From the NCBI GenBank assembly GCA_007376485.1, contig VMGJ01000002.1, positions 15,134-79,133 of the forward strand: a DNA stretch of 64,000 nt. Reading direction: 5' to 3'. Below, in pieces: positions 1,419 through 50,178 of this stretch; the first letter of the stretch is position 1, and the number at the start of each line of letters is the position of its first letter. The stretch comes from Parcubacteria group bacterium Licking1014_17. GTDB lineage: Bacteria; Patescibacteriota; Minisyncoccia; 2-02-FULL-40-12; IGHO2-01-FULL-4-A. The notes beneath the pieces are model-generated. The model saw nothing but the letters and a program-made list of their open reading frames with translations, was not told the origin of the DNA and made no database searches. A program made the position numbers and the translations under genes.

Positions 1419-1976
1419 TTAAATATTTAACAAAAATAACAGCAGGCTCATCACAATTTTTCCGCGCAATTTATTGATGGCTCGCGAAAAAATCATTTTA
1501 CAATTGGTTTCGCTCTTGCCGACTATTTCCGTAATTTCCTTGTACAGTAATCCGTCCCAGATTCTCAATATTATGATTTCCTTCTGCTCCTCGTTCAGTT
1601 CCTTCAGATATTTTTTCACCTCATCCAATTTCATTCTGACATCCAGATCGCGGTTCATATCCTCTCCCGATGCCAAGTCCCAGAAATCATATATTTCAAC
1701 GTCGTCCTTTTTGGTCCGGTAGTAATCAATCACCGTATTTCGGGCAATTCTGTAAATCCATGAAGAAAAAGAACCTCTGCTTTCATCAAACGACATTAAT
1801 TTTTCAAGCGCTTTCATAAACGTCCGGCTTGTCAGGTCTTCGGCTGTTTCTTTCTGCCCCACCCGGTAGTAAATAAACCTGTAAATTTTCCCGAAATAGG
1901 CGTCGTAAAGCTTCCCGAATTCCTCCGACTGCCCTTCTTTGCACCGTCTGACAATTTGTGATTCTTCCGCTTCCAT
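1419..1976 (-). CDS. ECF-family RNA polymerase sigma-70 factor.
   Basis: Contains sigma-70 region 2 (YRIARNTVIDYYR) and region 4 (EQKEIIILRIWDGLLYKEITEIVGKSETNCKMIFSRAINKLR). Confidence 0.8.
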   Translation of the reverse strand: MEAEESQIVRRCKEGQSEEFGKLYDAYFGKIYRFIYYRVGQKETAEDLTSRTFMKALEKLMSFDESRGSFSSWIYRIARNTVIDYYRTKKDDVEIYDFWDLASGEDMNRDLDVRMKLDEVKKYLKELNEEQKEIIILRIWDGLLYKEITEIVGKSETNCKMIFSRAINKLRGKIVMSLLLFLLNI

Positions 1977-2015
1977 AGTTCATACGACAATCACGCCGAA
2001 AAGTGACATGACATA

Positions 2016-3287
2016 TCAAACCAAGCTCCAAATCAAGGCGATTGCCGCCGCCGCCATAATTACGGTTATGAGCCAGCCCAGGATATTCGAAAACCGGGAA
2101 TTCACGCGTTCGCCCATGATTTTTTTGTTGTTTGAAATCAACATTATCAGAATTAAAAGCGGCGGAGCAAGAACGCCGTTAAGAGCCGCGGCATAATAAA
2201 GTATTTTGAACGGCGGAATAGGCAAGAAATTGATAATCAAGCCCACGACGGTCGCGATGGTGATTACCCCGTAAAATCCGTGGGCTTGGGACAGCTTTTT
2301 GTATAATCCCTCTTTCCATTGGAACGCTTCCGAGCAGGCATAAGACGCCGAAGCGGCCAAAACCGGTACTACTAAAAGTCCGGCTCCGATTATTCCGATT
2401 GCGAATAAAATATAAGCGAAATTACCGGCGATTGGGCGCAATGCTTCGGCGGCTTTGCCGGCGGTATCAACGTTCATTATTCCTAATCGCCCCAACGTAG
2501 CGGCAGCGGTCAAGATTATGAAAAAAGTAATGAAGTTTGAAAAAAACATCCCGAATACCGTGTCGGTTTTCATTTTTTTTACATCACGCTCTGTTATCCG
2601 CGGTTTTCCCACGTCCATCTCTTTCAGCTTATGCTCAACAATTTCTTCCTCGACTTCTTCGTTTGACTGCCAGAAAAAGAGATAGGGAGAAATGGTGGTT
2701 CCCAGAAAAGCAACGATGTTCAACAGATAACTTTTACTCCAAACGATTGTCGGTTTAATTGTAGAAATAAATACTTCGCCCCAATTTTGCTTGACCGCGA
2801 ACGCGGTTATCACATATGCCAAAAGAGTCAGCGCCAGATATTTCAAAAATTTTACGTACGTTTTATAGGTGATGAAAATCTCAAGAATCAAAATCAGCGC
2901 GGTTGTTCCGAGCAGCAGTACGGCGAAGGGCAGTCCGATAATTAATTTTAGGGAAGAAGCCATGGCGCCCAAATCCGCCCCGATATTTACGGTGTTGGCG
3001 AACAATAGAATGGCGATTGCGGCATAGAGAATCTTTTTTGAGTAATGGTTTCTGATTACACCGGACAGCCCTTTGCCTGTCACCAGCCCGATTCTGCCAC
3101 AAATTTCCTGAACCACAACCATAAACGGAAAAGAGTAGAGCGCCGCCCATAATTGATGATAGCCAAATTGCGACCCGGATTGAGAATAGGTGGCGATTCC
3201 CGAAGGGTCATTATCCGAAGCGCCGGTTATAAACCCGGGTCCGAGAAATTTGAAAAACTTTTTGATTTTCTTCTTTATCTCCGACAT
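2016..3287 (-). CDS. mntH: NRAMP-family divalent metal (Mn2+/Fe2+) transporter.
   Basis: Carries the GPGFITGASDNDPSGIATYSQSGSQFGY...MVVVQEICGRIGLVTGKGL NRAMP signature. The protein is polytopic and 423 aa long. Confidence 0.85.
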   Translation of the reverse strand: MSEIKKKIKKFFKFLGPGFITGASDNDPSGIATYSQSGSQFGYHQLWAALYSFPFMVVVQEICGRIGLVTGKGLSGVIRNHYSKKILYAAIAILLFANTVNIGADLGAMASSLKLIIGLPFAVLLLGTTALILILEIFITYKTYVKFLKYLALTLLAYVITAFAVKQNWGEVFISTIKPTIVWSKSYLLNIVAFLGTTISPYLFFWQSNEEVEEEIVEHKLKEMDVGKPRITERDVKKMKTDTVFGMFFSNFITFFIILTAAATLGRLGIMNVDTAGKAAEALRPIAGNFAYILFAIGIIGAGLLVVPVLAASASYACSEAFQWKEGLYKKLSQAHGFYGVITIATVVGLIINFLPIPPFKILYYAAALNGVLAPPLLILIMLISNNKKIMGERVNSRFSNILGWLITVIMAAAAIALIWSLV

Positions 3288-3374
3288 CTACGATTATATT
3301 TTAGCACAAAACCGCAATTTATTAATAAAGACCGGGCGTGCGAAACCACCCGGTCTTAAAAAGGACAGTGCTTC

Positions 3375-3668
3375 TTAATGTCCTACCGATTCAACCAATG
3401 TGAAATAATAATTGAGCACCTCCGCCAGTTCACCCGTATCATCAATGAAGCCAATGAACACATCGCCCCCGTGTTTCAGAATTTCTGAAATTGTGAATGG
3501 ACCCCTGCCGTGTCCCCGAATTAATAATTCTATATCTGCTTTGATGCAACCCTGGTCAAATACTTTCGGGTCCAAAAAGCATATTTCATCCTCGATATGG
3601 ACTATTTTATTCATCCATCCACGAGAATCGCAAATGAAAGTTTCTTTTAACTTTACACAAGTTAACAT
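3375..3668 (-). CDS. Hypothetical protein of 97 aa.
   Basis: Clean ORF with no recognisable motif. Confidence 0.3.
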   Translation of the reverse strand: MLTCVKLKETFICDSRGWMNKIVHIEDEICFLDPKVFDQGCIKADIELLIRGHGRGPFTISEILKHGGDVFIGFIDDTGELAEVLNYYFTLVESVGH

Positions 3669-5560: not shown

Positions 5561-6280
5561 TTACTTGAACGGGACTTTAGTTCTCAATTTATTTTGATTT
5601 TTTTTATCGCCGACAATCAGGCCATCGCGGATTTCAATGATACGATCGGCGTGTTCAGCCACATAACGCTCGTGGGTAATTAAAATAACCGTGCGTTTTT
5701 GTTTCTCGTTCAGTATTTGAAAAGTGTAAAGCACGACTTCGCCGGTCTTAGTGTCTAAATTACCGGTCGGCTCGTCGGCTAAAATTATAGAAGGGTTGTT
5801 CACCAGCGCCCGGGCGATAGCCACGCGCTGCATCTGGCCGCCGGAGAGCTGATTGGAACGGTGTTGGTAATGGCTTTCATCTAAGCCAGTATTTTTAAGC
5901 GCTTCCTTGGCGCGGGTTTCTCTTTTTTCCTCGGGCGTATTCGTATACATCAGAGGTAGCATGGCATTACGCAAAACTGTGGCCCTGGGCAGTAAGTTGA
6001 ACGACTGGAAAACAAAACCAAGCTTATCTTTGCGGATGTCAGCCAGTTCATCATCGGACAATTTGGAAACATCATGGCCATCGAGAATGTACTGGCCGCT
6101 GGTAGGCGTATCCAGTGCCCCGATAATATTCATAAGCGTTGATTTGCCCGAACCAGACGGTCCCATAATAGCCACGAATTCACCGTCTTTAATACTAAAG
6201 GTTAATCCTTTCAAGACGGTCGTTTCCACGTTGCCGTTGCCGCTTTTGTAAATTTTAGTAATATTTTTACAATCAATCAT
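5561..6280 (-). CDS. ABC transporter ATP-binding protein, MacB/LolD-like.
   Basis: Shows Walker A (GPSGSGKST), the [15 protein letters not shown] signature, and Walker B ([11 protein letters not shown]). The true start is the ATG at 6280 ([11 protein letters not shown]), which overlaps the upstream stop codon. Confidence 0.9.
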
Positions 6281-6284
6281 ATTT

Positions 6285-8051
6285 TTAACGGGAACCGTTA
6301 AGTCCTCTTGTTCCCCCGCCCGCATTAAGAATACTTCTGTTTTGAGTTGAACTTTGAGTACTGGCTGTTGAAGAAGTAATAGTGCGGGTAACAATCACAT
6401 CGCCTTCTTTTAGTCCGTCGGTGATTTCAGCATAAGAATCGCTGATTAGCCCGACTGTTATTGTTTGCCGCTTCGGTTGGGAATCAAGAACAATGCCGGC
6501 GCTGCTTGCGCTCTGGGCTAAAAGTTCATTGGCGGAACTGGAAGCCTCGCTCGGCATTTCCACGTAGCTGAAATCACTCGAAGTTTTAATCGCTGAGAGC
6601 GGCACCATGAGAACGTTTTGTTTTGAATCCGTGATAATGGATGCCGAAACGCTCATTCCCGGTTTAATCCGGCTATCTTCAGCGTCAAGGCCGATTTTGA
6701 TATTGTAGCTGACAACTCCCTGGCTCACCGCCCCGATAATATCCACATCAGCTACTTTGCCGGTGATGGTTAGATTTTCCACGGCATCAAACGTTAAAGT
6801 AACTTTTTGGTCAATTTTAATCTTAGCCACATCAACTTCATTGAGGGAAATCTCGGCAATCCTTTGATTAGAAATTACCGTGACTGCGGCAGTGCCTCCG
6901 GAAGCGGAGTCCCCGCGCTTAATATTTACCGCTGCTACCGTGCCGGCAAAAGGCGCCCGAACGTAATAATTAGCCAGATTATCCTTGGCGTCCTGCAGCA
7001 CTGCTTGCCGCTGCTGCACTGCTATTTGCTGGCTGGCTAAGTCGAGGGGGTTGCTTTGCTGAGCATTACTAAAATTTCTCTGGGCGCTGGCCAAATTCTG
7101 TTGATTTGAGGTGATTGAATTCTGGATATTCGCCAGTGTATTTATATGGCTGTTCAGTTTGCTTACATAGCCGGCGATATCGGATTGATATTGGGTGATG
7201 GCCGAAGGGATTGGTCGCGAAGTTTGATATTGTTTCATGCTTAAAACCACGGTATCAAGAATGTTCTGTTCGTCTTTAACCGTTTGGGCCATCAATTTGA
7301 CAGTTTCAAGCGTTTCATTAATGAGGACGATGATTTGCTCCGGTGAAGAATAGCGGCTGGTGTTTTTGTAGTTATCAAAATTAGCGCTGAATTTTGCCGC
7401 CGCCGTTTGATAGTTGCCCGCGGACTGATAAATCATAACGTCCATCTGAAAAACACTGTATTGATCCATTAAGTCCCGATAAGCGCCGGTGTTAGCCTGA
7501 GTTGAGCTGCCAACCTTGGCATCGTAAAGAATGCCGCGAATACCGGTTGAAATGTCGGGCAGGTCGAGAAAAGCGTTGGCTACGCCGTTGAATCCGTTTT
7601 GATAGGCCTGCCCCAAATTGCTCTGGGCGTTGGTAATCGTATCTTGCAATTGGGGGATACTGGAACTTTGGCTCAGTTTGGTTTTTTGTAAGCTTATTTG
7701 AGCATTTTCCAAACTAATTTCTGCGTCCCGGATGGCTTTCAAAGCATCTTGGGTATTAAGTTGAACCAGTAAAGTTCCGGCCCGGACGGCTTGTCCGTTT
7801 TTTACACCCACGTAGACCACGTCGCCGGAGACCTTTGGTTTTACATCCACCTGATTTGATGCCGAAATCTGCCCGCTTCCCGAAATGGAAGATATTATTG
7901 TTCCTTTTTGGACGCTGGCGAGTACATATTGAGATGCTGCCGTGCCGCCACTGCCTCTGACCAGCAAATAAATTATAACGATTACCACCAGCGCCGAAAC
8001 CGCGGAAATTACTTTGTGTTTGCTGATAATTTTTTTAATTTTTTGTATCAT
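6285..8051 (-). CDS. HlyD/MacA-type periplasmic adaptor (membrane fusion protein).
   Basis: Has an N-terminal transmembrane helix, biotinyl-lipoyl-like segments (VKPKVSGDVVYVGVKNGQAVRAGTLL and RAPFAGTVAAVNIKRGD), and a long Q/N-rich coiled coil. Confidence 0.8.
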   Translation of the reverse strand: MIQKIKKIISKHKVISAVSALVVIVIIYLLVRGSGGTAASQYVLASVQKGTIISSISGSGQISASNQVDVKPKVSGDVVYVGVKNGQAVRAGTLLVQLNTQDALKAIRDAEISLENAQISLQKTKLSQSSSIPQLQDTITNAQSNLGQAYQNGFNGVANAFLDLPDISTGIRGILYDAKVGSSTQANTGAYRDLMDQYSVFQMDVMIYQSAGNYQTAAAKFSANFDNYKNTSRYSSPEQIIVLINETLETVKLMAQTVKDEQNILDTVVLSMKQYQTSRPIPSAITQYQSDIAGYVSKLNSHINTLANIQNSITSNQQNLASAQRNFSNAQQSNPLDLASQQIAVQQRQAVLQDAKDNLANYYVRAPFAGTVAAVNIKRGDSASGGTAAVTVISNQRIAEISLNEVDVAKIKIDQKVTLTFDAVENLTITGKVADVDIIGAVSQGVVSYNIKIGLDAEDSRIKPGMSVSASIITDSKQNVLMVPLSAIKTSSDFSYVEMPSEASSSANELLAQSASSAGIVLDSQPKRQTITVGLISDSYAEITDGLKEGDVIVTRTITSSTASTQSSTQNRSILNAGGGTRGLNGSR

Positions 8052-11112: not shown

Positions 11113-12882
11113 CTATTTGCCGATTTTCTTGAGAAACTTTCTTGGCGAAAATCCGATTCCGAAAGCAATCATCGCAAGTCCGGCTGTTATCATTGAAGCG
11201 AACATAGCGTAAAGCAATTCGAGATCGAGAGAAAAACCGGTATTCGGCAGGGTCGTGGCGGCGCCCAGCACTTCACCCGCTGGCGTGGGAGTGGGATATG
11301 CCGCCGCAATTACTATAGCAGGAGTTTCCGTGGGCGTCGGCTCGGGAATTTCTATGCTGGCACCGGCGACTGATCCGCCACTGCCGCCGCTGCTGCCATG
11401 ACTGGGATTATTGAACGCCCCGTTAATATCGCCGTTTACCAAAGTGCATATCTTATGGTCGCCGAAATTCAGAACTACCTGCCCGCCAGGAGCACAATCG
11501 TTTTCAAACCCTTTAAATTCATAGCCGCTGGGCGGACCATTTTCGCCTACATTGTAGGTCCCCGGCGCCAAGGAATAATAGGTACCTGCGCCCGAGCCGG
11601 CAGCTGGACTTCCGGAAACATCCGTACCGGAATTGTTCACATCAGCCAGTGTGGTTTTGATTAACATTCCTAAAATCCAATTCGGCTGAAGGAGCGTGGG
11701 TTGGAGAAGACTTCTCACATGAACAACGATATCCGAAGGCACGATTCCGCCGCCATGAGTGTTATTAACTACAGTGATGACAAAGAGAGTAGTGTCACCC
11801 GGCGGAGTTGGGGTCGGGGTCGGAGTTGGAGCTGGAGACACTGACCCTGATGGTGTGGGAGTGGGCGTAACACTGCCGGAAGGGGTAGGCGTGGGAGAAA
11901 CCGATCCCGAAGGCGTAGGTGTCGGTGTAACGCTGCCGGAAGGGGTAGGCGTGGGGCTGGAGGTTTCAGTCGGCGTGGGGGTAGGCGTGGGCGTTGGCGA
12001 AGGGCAGATAAATGTGGCTAACGACAAACCCGGAACATAATTGATTGTGGCATTGTTCCCGATATTAACTTTCTGGCCGTAGACAGCCGTGATATCACCA
12101 TTTGAAGATGGCTCCAGAAGTACGCCGCCATTTAAGGAATAAAAGACAACAGAATTGCCCGGGTTTGACTGGACATCAATAGAATTATCGCCGGTATTTT
12201 GCGATGAAACCAAAAGAAGAAATCCGGAACCGTTGGCGCCGGCTTTGGCATTTCCTTCCAATAGGATTGTGCCTTTTGCCATTACAACCGTGCCGGCAGC
12301 ACCGAACGAGGCGTCAATAAAGAAGCTTGAATTCATTCCTAAAATAATATTTCCGGTCACATAAATCGGTCCTTCAATTATGGCAGCTGCGCCAGGACCC
12401 AAAATTAAATTCCCATCAATTTTAACCGGACCTATAAAAGTGGGGTTGTTTAACATGGAAATAAGAACATCTCCAGTAATAGTTCCCCCTTCGGCGGCGG
12501 CATTTTCCCAATCGGATTCGCTGATTGGAGGAAGCGGCTCCGGAGCCGCGCCTTCGGTGACTGTGCCCGTAACTTTGATACCAAACGGCGGGATATTATT
12601 AATAGTTCCCGCGGCAGTGGCGTTCCCGTTTATTTTTGACCATGCTCCCGTAGCACCAACATTAGCATCTGAACGGACATTGCCATTCACCAAAGCATTA
12701 GCGCCTAAGCTGACATCTTTACTATCTGACTGTACCGCATAAGGAAAAGATATTGTCGTCCCCTGCTTACAGCTTGAATCCGCCCGGCTGTTTTGGGATT
12801 GGGCAATCAAAACAATGCCTACGACTATGGCAATTATTGAAAGAAAACTGACGCCGGTCCTCTTAATTGTTTTTGTGCTCAT
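11113..12882 (-). CDS. Cell-wall-anchored surface protein with a C-terminal LPNTG sorting signal, a candidate sortase substrate.
   Basis: Has a signal peptide, a Pro/Thr-rich stalk ([23 protein letters not shown]... with a tandem SGSV[T/S]PTPTP x4), and a C-terminus of LPNTG followed by a hydrophobic transmembrane stretch and the basic tail RKFLKKIGK. Confidence 0.75.
11815..11990. repeat. Tandem roughly 30-nt repeats encoding SGSV(T/S)PTPTP x4 plus PT dipeptide runs.
   Basis: The DNA and protein periodicity are visible directly. The plus-strand ORF 11759..12040 (GVGVG...) is the shadow of this repeat. Confidence 0.7.
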
Positions 12883-24041: not shown

Positions 24042-25886
24042 ATGAAAGAGAAATTATCAAATTTAAGAAATATAGCCATCATCGCCCATGTTGACCACGG
24101 CAAAACAACGCTGGTTGATTTTTTATTGAAACAATCGAACACTTTTCATGCCAAAGCGGAAGAATTAGGCAAGGATTTAATTATGGATTCCAATGATTTG
24201 GAGAAAGAAAGGGGTATAACGATCCTGGCAAAGAATACCTCGGTCAATTATAACGGCACTAAAATTAATATCATTGATACGCCGGGCCACGCCGATTTCG
24301 GAGGAGAGGTAGAACGGACTCTAAATATGGCTGACGGGGCTCTATTGTTGGTGGATGCCCAGGAAGGCCCGATGCCTCAAACAAAGTTTGTTCTTAAAAA
24401 AGCGATTGATTTGAATCTGAAGATTATTGTCGTTATAAATAAAATCGATAAACCGGGCGCCGACCCCAAGCGGACCATCGGTGAAGTGTCCAACCTTTTT
24501 CTGAATCTTTCTACGCATGAAAGCCATCTGGATTTTCCAATTATTTATGCCATCGGCCGCGAGGGAAAGGCATGGGATCATGAGCCGACGGCTGAAGAAA
24601 AATCAGCCGAAGGAAATCTTGAACCGCTTTTCAAGAAAATAATAGAATGCATCCCGGCGCCGGAAGTTGACGCAGACGCGCCCCTGCAAATGCTCGTTTC
24701 AAACTTGGATAGGGATAATTATCAGGGTAAATACACCATCGGCCGGATTGCCCGCGGAAAAATCAAAATCGGCCAGGCGGTGACGCTCATCGACCTGACT
24801 GGCAATAAAGAAAACGGGAGAGTAGATAAAATTTTCACGTTTCAGGGATTGGTCAGGACGGAAGTTTTCGAAGCCTCTGCCGGAGATATAGTCGCGGTCA
24901 CCGGAATCCCAAATTCCCACATAGGCATGACGGTCGCCGATTTCGATTCGCCTGAAGCGCTGCCAACCATAACAATAGAGGAACCGACATTAAGAATAAG
25001 AATCGGACCGAACACGTCCCCTTTCAAGGGCAAGGAAGGCACGATTTTTACGTCGCGGCAAATTGCTGAGCGGCTTCATCGGGAAGTAGAGACGAACGTG
25101 GGCATGAGATTGCAGGAGCTTGGCGGAACTGATTTTTTGGTTTCGGGCCGCGGAGAACTGCACCTGTCAATTTTAATTGAAACCTTAAGGCGCGAGGGAT
25201 TTGAAATGGAAATTTCAAAGCCGGAAGTCATTATAAAAGAAATCGACGGCGAGAAAATGGAACCATTCGAAGAAGTGACAATTGACGTGCCGGAAGAATA
25301 TGTGGGGGTCATTACGGCGGAATTCGGAAAAAGAAAAGCAAACTTAATTGATTTGGCCAATCACAATAATGGATATTCGAGGCTTGTTTATCACATTAGC
25401 ACCCAGGCATTTCTGGGCTTGCGGAATATTCTGGTCGTGGATACAAAAGGAACGGCAATTATCAACAGCGTATTGCTTGGCTACAAGGATCTTGCCGGCA
25501 GCGTGCCCAGAATAAGAAACGGCGCCCTCATAGTTTCTGAAACGGGAAAGGCGGTGGCTTTCGGTCTTCAAGTAGCGCAGGGCAGGGGCATTGTTTTTAT
25601 TCCGCCAACTATTCCTGTCTACGAAGGAATGATAATAGGTTTAAATAGCCGGAAAGAAGATATAGAAATTAACGTATGCAAAGGCAAAGAACTTACGAAT
25701 ATGAGGTCAAAATCTTCCGACGAAGCGATTGTCCTTGCCCCGCCTCTTGTATTTACTTTAGAGCAGGCAATAGATTTTATTGAAGACGACGAGCTTCTTG
25801 AAGTAACCCCGCAATCTTTGCGTTTAAGAAAAAAACATCTCACAAAAAACGACAGAGTCCGCGTTAAAAGAGAAAACAGAGAATAA
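24042..25886 (+). CDS. typA: Translational GTPase TypA/BipA.
   Basis: Has the G1-G4 motifs ([18 protein letters not shown]), the EF-G-like domain layout, and a BipA-specific C-terminus. The protein is 614 aa long. Confidence 0.9.
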
Positions 25887-25952: not shown

Positions 25953-26079
25953 CATGTGCACTGAGCTTGTCGAAGTGCTCCACACTGTGGACGACGTTAG
26001 AACCAGAACACAGAAATCCACGGGGTATATTCACATACCAAACATAGCTTTTTGATTTTGTCCTACCCTTTCACAACCA

Positions 26080-26406
26080 CTATTTTTCCGATAGAGCCTT
26101 CCCGAGTTCAGGAATATCTTTTTGTATAGTCTTCCAAACTTCTTCAAGGTCAACTTCAAAATATCCATGAATAAGCATATTTCTCATCCCTATTATTTTA
26201 TCCCAAGGTACATGCTTATTGCTCTCGTGAAATCCAGAAGAAAGACGATTTGATGCCTCACCTACAATTTCAATTTCGCGTATTACAGCGTCCTGAAGTA
26301 ATTTGTTCTTCAGAAATTCATCACGATTCACATCACCTATGTGTTCAACTATTGTTTTTATCGCATCTTTGATGTGTTGTACAAAAACAGAATCACTTTT
26401 TTCCAT
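26080..26406 (-). CDS. hepT: HepT-like HEPN (DUF86) toxin.
   Basis: Carries the RNMLIHGY motif (R-x4-HxY) and overlaps the mntA gene by 14 nt. Confidence 0.8.
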   Translation of the reverse strand: MEKSDSVFVQHIKDAIKTIVEHIGDVNRDEFLKNKLLQDAVIREIEIVGEASNRLSSGFHESNKHVPWDKIIGMRNMLIHGYFEVDLEEVWKTIQKDIPELGKALSEK

Positions 26407-29536: not shown

Positions 29537-29571
29537 GACGCATATCGGTCGCTTGGAACCTGACCTAAATG

Positions 29572-29908
29572 CTCCGGCGCCTGGACTCGAACCAGGAACC
29601 ATCTCCTTACACATAATCCATTACTTTCGTAGTGGGGTGGACTATATCTTACCCGTGTCCCGTTGTTAGCGGATTTAGGGTTTTCGGTATCTAGTCTCTA
29701 CGGTGTCCCCTCGATTCGGGCTCGCCCTGGGCGAGCTTGTCCTGAGCTCGTCGAAGGACGAAGCGAGTCGAAGGGTTCCCACGGTATTACCCATTCGCCT
29801 ATTGGCAAATTAGGGCTTCACCGTTATCCCGAAAAGTTTCAACCTAAGTTTCCTTAGGAAGCTGCGATAAATTCACAGGGAGCCGCTCTACCATTGAGCT
29901 ACGCCGGA
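29572..29908 (-). tRNA. tRNA-Asn(GUU) interrupted by a roughly 265-nt group I intron in the anticodon loop.
   Basis: The 5' exon (29908..29875) reads TCCGGCG-TA-GCTC-AATGGTA-GAGC-G-GCTCC-CTGT. The 3' exon (29609..29572) reads TAA-GGAGA-TGGTT-CCTGG-TTCGAGT-CCAGG-CGCCGGA-G. Joined, they give the anticodon loop CUGUUAA with a perfect 7-bp acceptor stem. The intervening 265 nt ends in G, follows an exon U, and contains the group I P7 motif GUAGAGACUAGA...AUAGUCC. Confidence 0.6.
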
Positions 29909-29940
29909 ATCTTTTTTATTTAAGGTGCTGCCCATTTCGC

Positions 29941-29986
29941 CCCTCGACCAGCTCGGGGCAAGCCCTTCGACAGGTTCAGGGCAAGC
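29941..29986. repeat. Two tandem units of the dispersed 23-24-nt repeat family.
   Basis: CCCTCGACCAGCTCGGGGCAAGC followed by CCTTCGACAGGTTCAGGGCAAGC. The same family occurs at about 25947, 29700-29770 (inverted, inside the intron) and 49532-49656. Confidence 0.6.
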
Positions 29987-48030: not shown

Positions 48031-50178
48031 TTATTTTACCATCCTCAAAAACTCCCCTTCCGAGATTATTTTCACTCCCAGTTTTTTGGCTTTATCAAAT
48101 TTTGAGCCCGGTTCGTGGCCGGCGACGACATAGCTGGTTTCCTTGGATATCGACGATAAGGCGTCGCCGCCATTTTCGCGGACGAGTTTTTCGGCATCCT
48201 CGCGAGTAATGGTATCAAGCGAACCAGTGAAGATGAACGACAGTCCTTTCAATTTCTGCGATTTTTGCGATTTGCTTTGCGCCAGCACTTTCACCCCGGC
48301 TTTTTTGAATTTTTCCAAAAGTTTTTTGCTGTATGGTTTTTTGAACCACTTATAAATTTCTTCAGCCGTAACATCACCGATGTCTTTTATTGAATTCAAT
48401 TCTCCGGCTTCGGCACCGGCGATTTTTTCGATTGTGCCGAACTGGCGCGCCAAATCAACAGCCGTTTCAATGCCTACGTGCGGAATCCCCAAACTGAAAA
48501 CAAATCTATCCAGCGTCACGGTTTTGTGCGACTGAATGGCGCCAATTGTATTTTCGGCGGATTTGTCGGCAAATCTTTCCAGGTTCATCAGGTCTTCTTT
48601 TTTTAATTTATACAAATCAGTAACATCCCTGATTAAGCCGGCATCAACAAGCTGGTCAATTATTTTCGGACCGACACCGTCTATATTCATCGCTCCTTTG
48701 GAAACAAAATGATACATATATTCCCTTTTTCTCGCTGGACAGTTCTCGTTGACGCATTTGTGCGCGGCATAACCCTCTTCCCTGACAATCGCGCCCTCGC
48801 AGGCGGGACATTTTTTGGGAAAATGAAATTCTTTTTCCTTGCCAGTTCTCAATTCCTTCAAAACTTTTTTTATGTCCGGAATGACATCGCCCGCCCTTCC
48901 GACAACCACCGTATCGCCTATTTTCACTCCGAGCCGTTTTATTTCATCTTCGTTGTGGAGGGTGGCGCGCGATATCGTTGTCCCGCCGATTTCCACCGGC
49001 TCAAGCACCGCTACCGGCGTGAGCGTTCCGGTACGCCCGACGCTGACAATGATGTCATTCAATTTTGTCGTTGATTCGCGTGGAGAAAACTTGTAAGCAA
49101 CAATTGCTCTCGGTGCTTTGCCGATAATGCCCAGCTTTTTTGACATTTTATTGTCGTTGATTATTACAACCGTGCCGTCAATTTCATAAGACAGCTTTTC
49201 GCGGTGTTTTTCCCAGTAGTCGCGGAAACCGCCGACTTCGTCAATCGTGCGGCAATATTTATTGTTTGGATTGGTTTTAAAACCAAGCGCCTTGAGAATC
49301 AGATGCTCCTCTTCATGGGTTTCCTGCCCGAAATTTGTGAGCAACGAATACGCGTACGAATCAAGTTTGCGCGAAGCGGTCAGTTTGGGGTCAAGCTGTC
49401 TGATGGAACCGGCGGCAAGATTGCGAGGGTTTTTATAAGTTGCCTCTCCGGCTTTTTTCTGTTCGGCGTTCATGCGCTCAAATTCTTTTTTGCTCAAAAA
49501 AACCTCACCTCTCACAATAATTTCTTCCGGCAGCCCCTTCGACAAGCTCAGGGCAGGCTCCTTCGACAAGCTCAGGGCAGGCTCCTTCGACAAGCTCAGG
49601 GCAGGCTCCTTCGACAAGCTCAGGGCAGGCTCCTTCGACAAGCTCAGGGCAAGCCCTTTTTCCCCCATTTCCTTCAAAAATTCTTCTCTGCTATTCAACT
49701 TCAGCGGTATGGCTTCAACTGTTTTCAGGTTTTGAGTAACATTTTCACCGATAAAACCGTCGCCGCGGGTGGCGCCGACAGCCAAGCTCCCGTTTTTATA
49801 AATCAGCTCAATCGCTAAGCCGTCTATTTTTAATTCGCAGAAAAATCCGGAATCAATAGCGCGGCTATCCAATCTTTTTACGCGGTCTATCCAGTCGTTT
49901 AAATCATCTTTATTAAAAACATCATTGAAAGAAAGCATCCTTCCCGGATGGGTAAACTTTTCAAATTTATCCAACGGCTTGCCGGCAACGCGCTGGGTCG
50001 GCGAATCGGGGGTCACGATTTTTGGGAATTGCTGCTCTAAATCAAATAGTTCCTTTTTGAGCGAGTCCTCAACCGATTCTTCGATTATCGGCGCGTCCAA
50101 AACCAGCCGGTGATAACGGTATTTATTGATTAAAACCCTTAATTTTTCAGCCCTTTGAGCGGCTTCTTTTGTGGTCAT
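48031..50178 (-). CDS. ligA: NAD-dependent DNA ligase LigA, carrying an in-frame (EPALSLSK)x5 insertion.
   Basis: Has the KxDG adenylation motif region (ELKIDGLAIEL), the OB domain, a Zn finger (CPACEGAIVREEGYAAHKCVNENC), an HhH domain and a BRCT domain. The protein is 715 aa. Confidence 0.9.
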   Translation of the reverse strand: MTTKEAAQRAEKLRVLINKYRYHRLVLDAPIIEESVEDSLKKELFDLEQQFPKIVTPDSPTQRVAGKPLDKFEKFTHPGRMLSFNDVFNKDDLNDWIDRVKRLDSRAIDSGFFCELKIDGLAIELIYKNGSLAVGATRGDGFIGENVTQNLKTVEAIPLKLNSREEFLKEMGEKGLALSLSKEPALSLSKEPALSLSKEPALSLSKEPALSLSKGLPEEIIVRGEVFLSKKEFERMNAEQKKAGEATYKNPRNLAAGSIRQLDPKLTASRKLDSYAYSLLTNFGQETHEEEHLILKALGFKTNPNNKYCRTIDEVGGFRDYWEKHREKLSYEIDGTVVIINDNKMSKKLGIIGKAPRAIVAYKFSPRESTTKLNDIIVSVGRTGTLTPVAVLEPVEIGGTTISRATLHNEDEIKRLGVKIGDTVVVGRAGDVIPDIKKVLKELRTGKEKEFHFPKKCPACEGAIVREEGYAAHKCVNENCPARKREYMYHFVSKGAMNIDGVGPKIIDQLVDAGLIRDVTDLYKLKKEDLMNLERFADKSAENTIGAIQSHKTVTLDRFVFSLGIPHVGIETAVDLARQFGTIEKIAGAEAGELNSIKDIGDVTAEEIYKWFKKPYSKKLLEKFKKAGVKVLAQSKSQKSQKLKGLSFIFTGSLDTITREDAEKLVRENGGDALSSISKETSYVVAGHEPGSKFDKAKKLGVKIISEGEFLRMVK
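49532..49656. repeat. Five tandem copies of a 24-nt unit (CCTTCGACAAGCTCAGGGCAGGCT) inside ligA.
   Basis: The repeat is in frame. It encodes EPALSLSK x5 on the coding strand and SFDKLRAG x5 / LRQAQGRL x5 in the shadow frames. It belongs to the dispersed repeat family. Confidence 0.8.

Follow-up and report, generated by a model that had tools for sequence, protein, structure and literature searches.

A REP-like tandem array in the adenylation-domain loop of a Parcubacteria DNA ligase

The 64,000-nt stretch of contig VMGJ01000002.1 analysed here (hereafter the window) comes from the Parcubacteria group bacterium Licking1014_17 and contains a ligA gene, encoding the NAD-dependent DNA ligase, whose adenylation domain carries an in-frame tandem array of 24-nt units. 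We consider it probable that this array is an intragenic cluster of a dispersed selfish or passenger repeat, similar to repetitive extragenic palindromes (REPs), which is tolerated in a permissive loop of the enzyme. Nothing we found indicates a function of the insert for LigA. Read in this way, the result at the ligA locus is a deflationary one, in that it points to passenger DNA in a permissive loop and not to a designed switch in a replication enzyme. The main residual interest lies in the element family itself and in the repeat-rich LigA loop of Parcubacteria.

The array and the enzyme that carries it

48031..50178, minus strand: ligA, NAD-dependent DNA ligase, a complete open reading frame (ORF) of 715 aa with Pfam domains
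49529..49658, minus strand: tandem array of the REP-like element, GL-ALSLSK-(EPALSLSK)x4-GL (Tandem Repeats Finder [TRF], exact matches, coding-strand reading and junction comparison)
49647..49658, minus strand: left (5') array edge, AAGGGCTTGCCC, with an 8-nt spacer of the "23-nt type", GGCTTGCC (read from the sequence)
49529..49537, minus strand: right (3') array edge, AG, with which the final core ends, and then GGGCTGC (junction comparison)
49651..49689, minus strand: lineage-specific part of the loop before the array, R164-L176, REEFLKEMGEKGL (alignment of relatives; helix 164-173 in the AlphaFold2 [AF2] model)

TRF detected one strong array, at 49529-49658, with a period of 24, 5.5 copies, 96% matches and a score of 232. 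The 24-mer GGCAGGCTCCTTCGACAAGCTCAG occurs four times, exactly and head to tail, compared with no occurrence in 100 dinucleotide-preserving shuffles, and a 16-nt core, CGACAAGCTCAGGGCA, is found five times without mismatch inside the array. Its make-up is five 15-nt cores (CTGAGCTTGTCGAAG) with four 9-nt spacers (GAGCCTGCC) between them. On the coding (minus) strand the unit reads GCC CTG AGC TTG TCG AAG GAG CCT, and the protein context is ...GEKGL-ALSLSK-(EPALSLSK)x4-GL-PEEIIVRGEV..., the array site corresponding to LigA residues 177-214 of the nucleotidyltransferase (NTase, adenylation) domain. TRF, the exact 24-mers and the 715-aa ORF with all LigA domains agree that the tandem array is real and in frame, as an earlier note on this DNA had proposed. 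That note had counted five perfect 24-nt units in the N-terminal adenylation region; we find a tandem array of four perfect full units with diverged edges, located in the adenylation domain but not at the extreme N terminus.

At its left edge the array reads AAGGGCTTGCCC, the same sequence as the unit junction in this genome's intergenic tandem copies (see below); at the right edge GGGCTGC corresponds to the start of a degenerate spacer, GGGCTGCC (49536-49529). The host sequence resumes after the right edge with GGAAGAAATT..., which codes for PEEIIVRGEV, the motif III strand. The ligA unit equals a 23-nt unit plus one extra base, and its G+C content is 62.5%, as opposed to 46.4% for ligA.

The Pfam domain set of the protein is complete (PF01653, PF03120, PF03119, PF12826 and PF00533, that is adenylation [NTase], OB, Zn-finger, HhH and BRCT), with Ia included in the set tested. 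E. coli LigA (2owo) aligns with the window protein end to end (E=3e-149), the extra 51 residues (164-214) being placed between E. coli LigA residues 161 and 163. In a 70-sequence alignment, motif I (E115-L116-K117-x-D119-G120, KxDG), motif Ia (T137-R138-G139), motif III directly after the insert (R223-G224-E225), motif IV (D334-G335), motif V (K363) and the zinc cysteines C457/C460/C475/C480 are all present and invariant. The AF2 model of the window LigA has a mean predicted local distance difference test score (pLDDT) of 81.5, and solved LigA adenylation domains match it with TM-scores of 0.70-0.83. Judged from its sequence, the window LigA is apparently a complete, functional enzyme. The concern that the insertion might mark a pseudogene is dispelled by the intact catalytic motifs, with K117, R138, E225, D334, K363 and the zinc cysteines invariant.

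The least probable of the readings we weighed is that short-read assembly of a multi-copy repeat created the array or its copy number. Two points count for an artefact: the sequence comes from a metagenome-assembled genome (MAG), and the element breaks assemblies, as shown by its frequent location at contig ends in other assemblies. However, both flanks of the array are colinear, in-frame LigA, homologous to relatives up to the loop, and the neighbourhood from ligA to gatC matches that of a relative, gatC lying downstream of ligA in the same gene order as in the relative's locus L241. Colinearity on both sides and conserved gene order exclude a chimeric join. In addition, the same arrays are present inside genes in 13 independent metagenome contigs as well as in megabase-scale contigs, and the ~130-nt array is within the reach of a single read; only its exact copy number rests on the assembly.

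The host loop and its variability

The array lies in a loop between motifs Ia and III of the NTase domain. In a 120-sequence alignment of the window protein with 119 relatives, this loop, taken between 'EAIPLxL' and 'LVVRGEV', ranges from 0 to ~30 residues, and the (EPALSLSK)n insert is present in none of the relatives. The stretch R164-L176 that precedes the array resembles the first helix of the ~29-aa loop in long-loop relatives and is helical in the AF2 model; one such relative, P0067, reads LSQEQVIKNLHEAGL-KEIAERIARE-GLPKEII. In the window LigA this first helix is kept, and the array occupies the place of the second segment of the long-loop relatives. AF2 residues 181-207 are coil with pLDDT <50 (block means 37, 32 and 42), most flanking NTase core blocks have pLDDT values of ~85-95, and the motif III strand (219-228) is confident. 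The (EPALSLSK)n segment, ~40 residues long, is predicted by this model to be a disordered excursion from an intact fold. The loop location put forward in the earlier note is supported both by the alignment and by the low-confidence coil between well-modelled elements. We propose that LigA tolerates the insert because the loop is naturally hypervariable in the clade; a LigA loop that tolerates at least 40 extra residues could serve as a site into which tags or sensors are engineered.

Among Parcubacteria relatives, this loop of LigA is often coded by heptanucleotide tracts whose units are lineage-specific:

(AAACTGG)x4.6, perfect, coding for KLETGNWKLET
(CTACCAA)x4.7, coding for LPTTNYQLPT
(AAATCCC)x~7, coding for KSQIPNPKSQ...
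Relatives' loci with a heptanucleotide-tract ligA: L240 (gene 1501-3504), L241 (743-2758) and L242 (82-2157); proteins P0004-P0118

At least eight loop residues are exactly encodable by a perfect 7-nt repeat in 16 of the 120 sequences, and three or more identities between residues i and i+7 are found in 37 of the 120 loops, compared with 3-7 for periods 5, 6, 8 and 9. Such tracts are reminiscent of the short tandemly repeated repetitive (STRR) heptamers of cyanobacteria. A one-unit slip of a heptanucleotide tract would frameshift an essential gene. Other odd inserts occur in the same loop (P0099, P0042, P0083 and P0073; e.g. PARNASHSDAGG, GGLSEARPEGGPFSL and SSNWSLVSGQDKKLVTSNQKPVTS) and look like translations of yet other repeat DNA. 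In the window ligA, TRF also reported an imperfect two-copy repeat of 21-22 nt (CGCGGTCTATCCAATCGTTTTA, 49860-49901), which lies ~200 nt upstream of the array in coding-strand terms, codes roughly for DWIDRVKRLDSRAID and may be due to chance.

The (EPALSLSK)n segment could be seen as a selected tether or interaction module of LigA, that is, as a gain at the protein level. The insert is retained in an essential gene, and the survey of REPs by Di Nocera, De Gregorio and Rocco (2013) speculated that REP insertions might modify the activity of replication and repair genes (PMC3733652). Against this, no relative has the insert, the repeat peptides matched no Pfam family above threshold, and the segment is modelled with pLDDT values of 32-42. 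Furthermore, DNA-identical units point to a recent expansion and not to long-term selection on the protein, and other hosts use different frames of the same DNA. We regard a protein-level gain as very unlikely.

The element family in the window and beyond

The element is present in five loci of the window, the ligA array and four other copies, which are listed here together with the intron that contains one of them:

25958..25978, plus strand: single copy, GCAC-TGAGCTTGTCGAA-GTGC, with a 4-bp stem and the exact 13-nt core, between convergent ORFs
29737..29761, plus strand: single copy, CTTGTCC-TGAGCTCGTCGAA-GGACGAAG, with 6 contiguous pairs, within a group I intron insertion
29618-29884, minus strand: group I intron of ~267 nt (Rfam RF00028, 42 bits, E=1.5e-8)
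29939..29986, minus strand: two diverged tandem copies with a 23-nt period (TRF), intergenic, just upstream of an intron-containing tRNA gene

The core CGACAAGCTCAGGGCA matches with 1-2 mismatches at 25957, 29738, 29945 and 29968, compared with a chance expectation of 0.01 matches. In the ligA coding orientation, all window copies have TGAGCTTGTCGAA in common and differ in their complementary flanks, so that stems of different sequence surround one core: GCAC/GTGC (25962), GTCC/GGAC (29743) and GCCC/GGGC (29966). The ORFs converging on the first copy are 24042..25886 (plus strand) and 26080..26406 (minus strand). The second copy is part of 42 nt inserted into a peripheral hairpin of the group I intron, a placement paralleled by the Rickettsia palindromic elements (RPEs), which also occur in RNA genes.

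Outside the window, the 17-mer CCTGAGCTTGTCGAAGG was found in at least 120 viral-contig stretches. Many of the viral-contig copies are longer, CCGTTCGYCC-TGAGCTTGTCGAA-GGRYGAACGG, their stems reaching 16 perfect pairs, and perfect 16-bp stems are seen in L026, L049 and L072. Outside the 15-nt core, the pairing frequency is 0.94, 0.94 and 0.62-0.67 at positions 1-3 and then falls to background; the conserved part of the element measures ~21-23 nt and the tandem period 21-27 nt. Two cores 21-27 nt apart occur in at least 119 stretches from species-representative genomes, which belong to Eremiobacterota, Bacteroidota, Alpha-, Beta-, Gamma- and Deltaproteobacteria, Actinomycetota, Cyanobacteria, Chloroflexota, Acidobacteriota, Zixibacteria and Verrucomicrobiota, and the cultured hosts of such tandem pairs include Variovorax, Novosphingobium, Sphingobium, Ramlibacter, Agromyces and Flavobacterium. 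Sphingobium megaplasmids carry 6-18 element places per replicon, and in one of them two convergent genes are separated by a gap that contains the element as an inverted doublet. The plasmid copies carry no repeat annotation, the sole feature under any match being a 'hypothetical protein'.

The distribution of the element across bacteria is patchy. It was found in none of 5,426 E. coli genomes, and cultured phages yielded only one 19-nt match, in one lineage and probably by chance (E=0.6). In related plasmid sets, in which we looked for copy-number variation, tandem arrays were nearly absent (one record). Rfam contains no family for the hairpin and gave weak sub-threshold matches, such as AaHKsRNA41 with 31 bits against a gathering score of 97. 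On a viral contig, such matches to 'Aggregatibacter sRNA 41' (RF02901, ~30 bits against 97) overlie long-stem copies at L049:1175-1278 and 6241-6494 and probably reflect the hairpin only. A higher-order repeat was seen at L154:1900-2790 (Pseudomarimonas arenosa contig11), where four blocks of ~276 nt are spaced by 182-251 nt, each consisting of a 2-5-copy 23-nt array of the element and an inverted variant copy. What places the element in a REP-like class is its short unit, a stem-loop with co-varying stems, its dispersed multi-copy occurrence and its REP-like intergenic sites, the stems of the ligA units themselves being only 2-4 bp.

An alternative built on the core is that a nuclease, transposase, nucleoid protein or RNA-binding factor recognises it as DNA or RNA, that the ligA array acts on the ligA mRNA or on local DNA, and that its translation is incidental. 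The identity of the core across distant phyla, while the stems co-vary, would fit such a cis-acting element, as would the copies in REP-like positions between convergent genes; REPs have also been proposed as RNA elements (PMC3733652). However, the stems of the ligA array are degenerate and confer no excess folding stability, and the element has neither a matching Rfam family nor a known partner. We judge a cis-acting role of the ligA array to be unlikely. An mRNA structure as the role of the array was rejected on the basis of its folding relative to shuffles (z=+1.85).

Reading frames, origin and known counterparts

The unit has a stop codon in one of its six reading frames, and the other five are open. 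A 23-nt array on the stop-bearing strand meets a TGA every three units, and the opposite strand is open in all three frames, so that a filter there would operate via the total insert length and not via stop codons. Among the genome loci listed, 60 arrays of at least three copies were available for comparison. An open frame of at least 250 aa was found for 16 of 26 arrays with a period divisible by three versus 1 of the 34 others (Fisher p=4.7e-7; Mann-Whitney p=3e-5), where some long frames in GC-rich DNA look spurious and those of L152, L153, L172 and L236 are not counted as real proteins. The family thereby offers a clean natural experiment on frame selection, with a period of 3n in genes versus 22/23 nt outside.

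Hosts confirmed by Pfam are an Obg GTPase, with the array in the C-terminal tail, a HemN-like radical-SAM protein, with a 21-nt period inside the domain, and a HIRAN-helicase. Searching for exact 48-nt matches to a pair of the identical 24-nt variant units retrieved 13 metagenome contigs with 58-65% G+C. The identical array is in frame as EPALSLSK, as in ligA, in a radical-SAM protein and an NAD-kinase-like protein. It is also in frame in aconitase X (AcnX), where it splits the Pfam match in two, in a xanthine-dehydrogenase-family subunit and in phosphoglucose isomerase (PGI). In most hosts with visible junctions the array starts with the spacer (A)AGGAGCCTGCC and ends with ...GTCGAAGG, and the flanks of the identical-unit arrays are host-specific and show no target duplication. 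For annotation, we caution that one DNA element gives rise, by translation, to peptides such as (EPALSLSK)n, (PSTSSGQA)n, (LRQAQGRL)n, (FDKLRAGS)n and (PELVEGAC)n.

Tentatively, these findings might reflect an undescribed repeat family that has spread horizontally across phyla, with a 15-17-nt core identical from bacteria of the Candidate Phyla Radiation (CPR) to Actinomycetota, 21-27-nt tandem arrays, and in-frame cassettes in essential genes (LigA, Obg, HemN-like, PGI, AcnX and others) in five readable frames; we hold this broader proposal to be possible rather than probable. Its DNA and peptide strings returned nothing relevant from a literature collection, which is itself incomplete. Such a family, if real, would represent a general source, as yet without a name, of disordered insertions in the loops and tails of bacterial proteins. 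It would also imply a conserved trans-acting partner or mobilisation route, the identical core across distant phyla raising the question of what recognises or moves the element.

The recurrence of the array bears directly on the suggestion of the earlier note that the arrangement is contingency-locus-like, i.e., that the array is kept for slippage-driven in-frame tuning of the LigA loop and provides adaptive heterogeneity. Four perfect head-to-tail 24-nt units are indeed a good substrate for slippage, the unit length preserves the frame and the site lies in a loop. The arrangement also resembles pathogen contingency loci and in-frame variable-number tandem repeats (VNTRs) in that perfect tandem repeats with a frame-preserving unit lie in a coding region. 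In contrast to these loci, the host is a core intracellular gene, a dispersed element takes the place of a locus-specific simple sequence, and no variation was seen (in a single sequence of the species). LigA is a housekeeping enzyme and not a surface, restriction-modification or host-interaction gene, and an in-frame change would only lengthen an insert that AF2 predicts to be disordered. Copy-number variants of ligA were found neither among 5.8 billion protein clusters, in which the closest other LigA is only 69% identical and the 100% match is the MAG's own protein, nor by an exact-protein contig lookup or a metagenome scan for 27-nt junctions (0), the collections searched containing no second sequence of this species. 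The presence of the same array in many unrelated enzymes and in non-coding DNA, including intergenic sites and a ribozyme loop, argues that divisibility by three reflects which arrays survive in genes. A survivorship filter on the places in which arrays persist, and not a design for switching, best explains the 3n period, and we consider a contingency locus quite unlikely.

For the reading we prefer, an intragenic cluster of a passenger repeat, the following course of events can be proposed. The element has a conserved core of 13-15 nt, (C)TGAGCTTGTCGAA(G), and a short complementary stem of variable sequence that closes it. One or more copies would have entered the DNA coding for the LigA surface loop that separates motif Ia from the motif III strand; template switching or illegitimate recombination at the microhomology AAGGGCT is the probable route. 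This route is suggested by the junction sequences and is proposed because a target duplication is not visible. The copies would then have been amplified or homogenised by replication slippage, and arrays with non-3n periods would have been purged from genes by selection. Three features that are shown here account for the survival of the gene: the frame in use is free of stops, the 24-nt unit keeps the gene in frame, and the length of this loop already varies freely in the clade. In-frame slippage presumably is still possible, so that the site would behave as a neutral VNTR rather than as a switch.

Several points weigh against this interpretation. The stem of the ligA unit has only 2 bp (4 bp if a bulged A is allowed), and the array as RNA folds no better than shuffles, being worse than the shuffle mean (z=+1.85). 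With degenerate stems and no excess of folding, the term 'palindromic' barely applies to the ligA copies. No target duplication was visible at the array junctions, and by the published definitions the element falls outside both the GTAG and the CGTC type of REP, a distant kinship being possible (PMC3733652). The neutrality of the insert is inferred, as are its route of entry and its amplification by slippage, and the mobility of the element is presumed. Perfect unit identity could also mean a very recent acquisition on which selection has yet to act, the 24-nt variant may either have been transferred in or have been derived locally from the 23-nt type, and the copy number in ligA is that of a metagenome assembly.

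Intragenic clusters of this kind have precedents. According to the survey of REPs in more than 80 species, some REPs lie wholly within ORFs, intragenic clusters or dimers code for 20-82 aa in frame in known genes, and intragenic REPs are enriched in DNA synthesis and repair genes, including the DNA ligase of Opitutus terrae (PMC3733652). Intragenic REP clusters, also in a DNA ligase, are thus already published, and the ligA array behaves in the same way. The authors argued that such insertions may be neutral, since they sit in linkers or loops that are flexible (PMC3733652). Like these REPs, the element is a short dispersed stem-loop repeat that is mostly intergenic, between convergent or unidirectional genes, with some copies in frame (PMC3733652). 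As in the REP clusters, bacterial interspersed mosaic elements (BIMEs) and REP doublets forming hairpins (REPINs) of Proteobacteria, it occurs as singlets, inverted doublets (Sphingobium) and clusters, with multiple copies per replicon, but its sequence is unrelated to that of classical REPs. The GTAG and CGTC REPs end in a GTAG or CGTC/TGTC tag, and the CGTC type has a stem of 8-9 bp starting with A-T, a loop of 4-5 nt and a CCA tail (PMC3733652), whereas our element has a 13-nt conserved core and a G+C stem of 3-5 bp without tag or CCA tail. Moreover, head-to-tail arrays are common for the element and were described as 'negligible' for CGTC REPs, and its identical core spans many phyla while REPs are species- or class-specific (PMC3733652).

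RPEs (Ogata et al. 2000, reviewed in PMC10969869) are a second precedent and the classic one, being selfish palindromic repeats that lie in frame in genes. As with RPEs, the element is in frame in unrelated housekeeping genes without destroying them (PMC10969869). Unlike RPEs, which are single insertions of ~100-150 bp with a conserved peptide and confined to Rickettsia (PMC10969869), it has a 23-24-nt unit, is tandem and widespread, and is hosted here by a Parcubacterium. The ligA array therefore resembles RPEs in behaviour only.

Two further features of the window were noted. A tRNA gene at 29567-29912 on the minus strand is split by the RF00028 group I intron and was missed by ARAGORN and by Rfam at the gathering threshold because of this split. 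Its 5' exon reads TCCGGCG-TA-GCTC...GAGC-G-GCTCC-CTGTGAA, and in its 3' exon CCTGG-TTCGAGT-CCAGG is the T-arm and CGCCGGA the acceptor; candidates for the anticodon are His GTG and Tyr GTA, as trial splices in ARAGORN vary with the boundaries chosen. At 11874-11999, TRF found a repeat with a 30-nt period (2.7 copies, score 92), which is followed by GGCGTG hexamer and dodecamer repeats.

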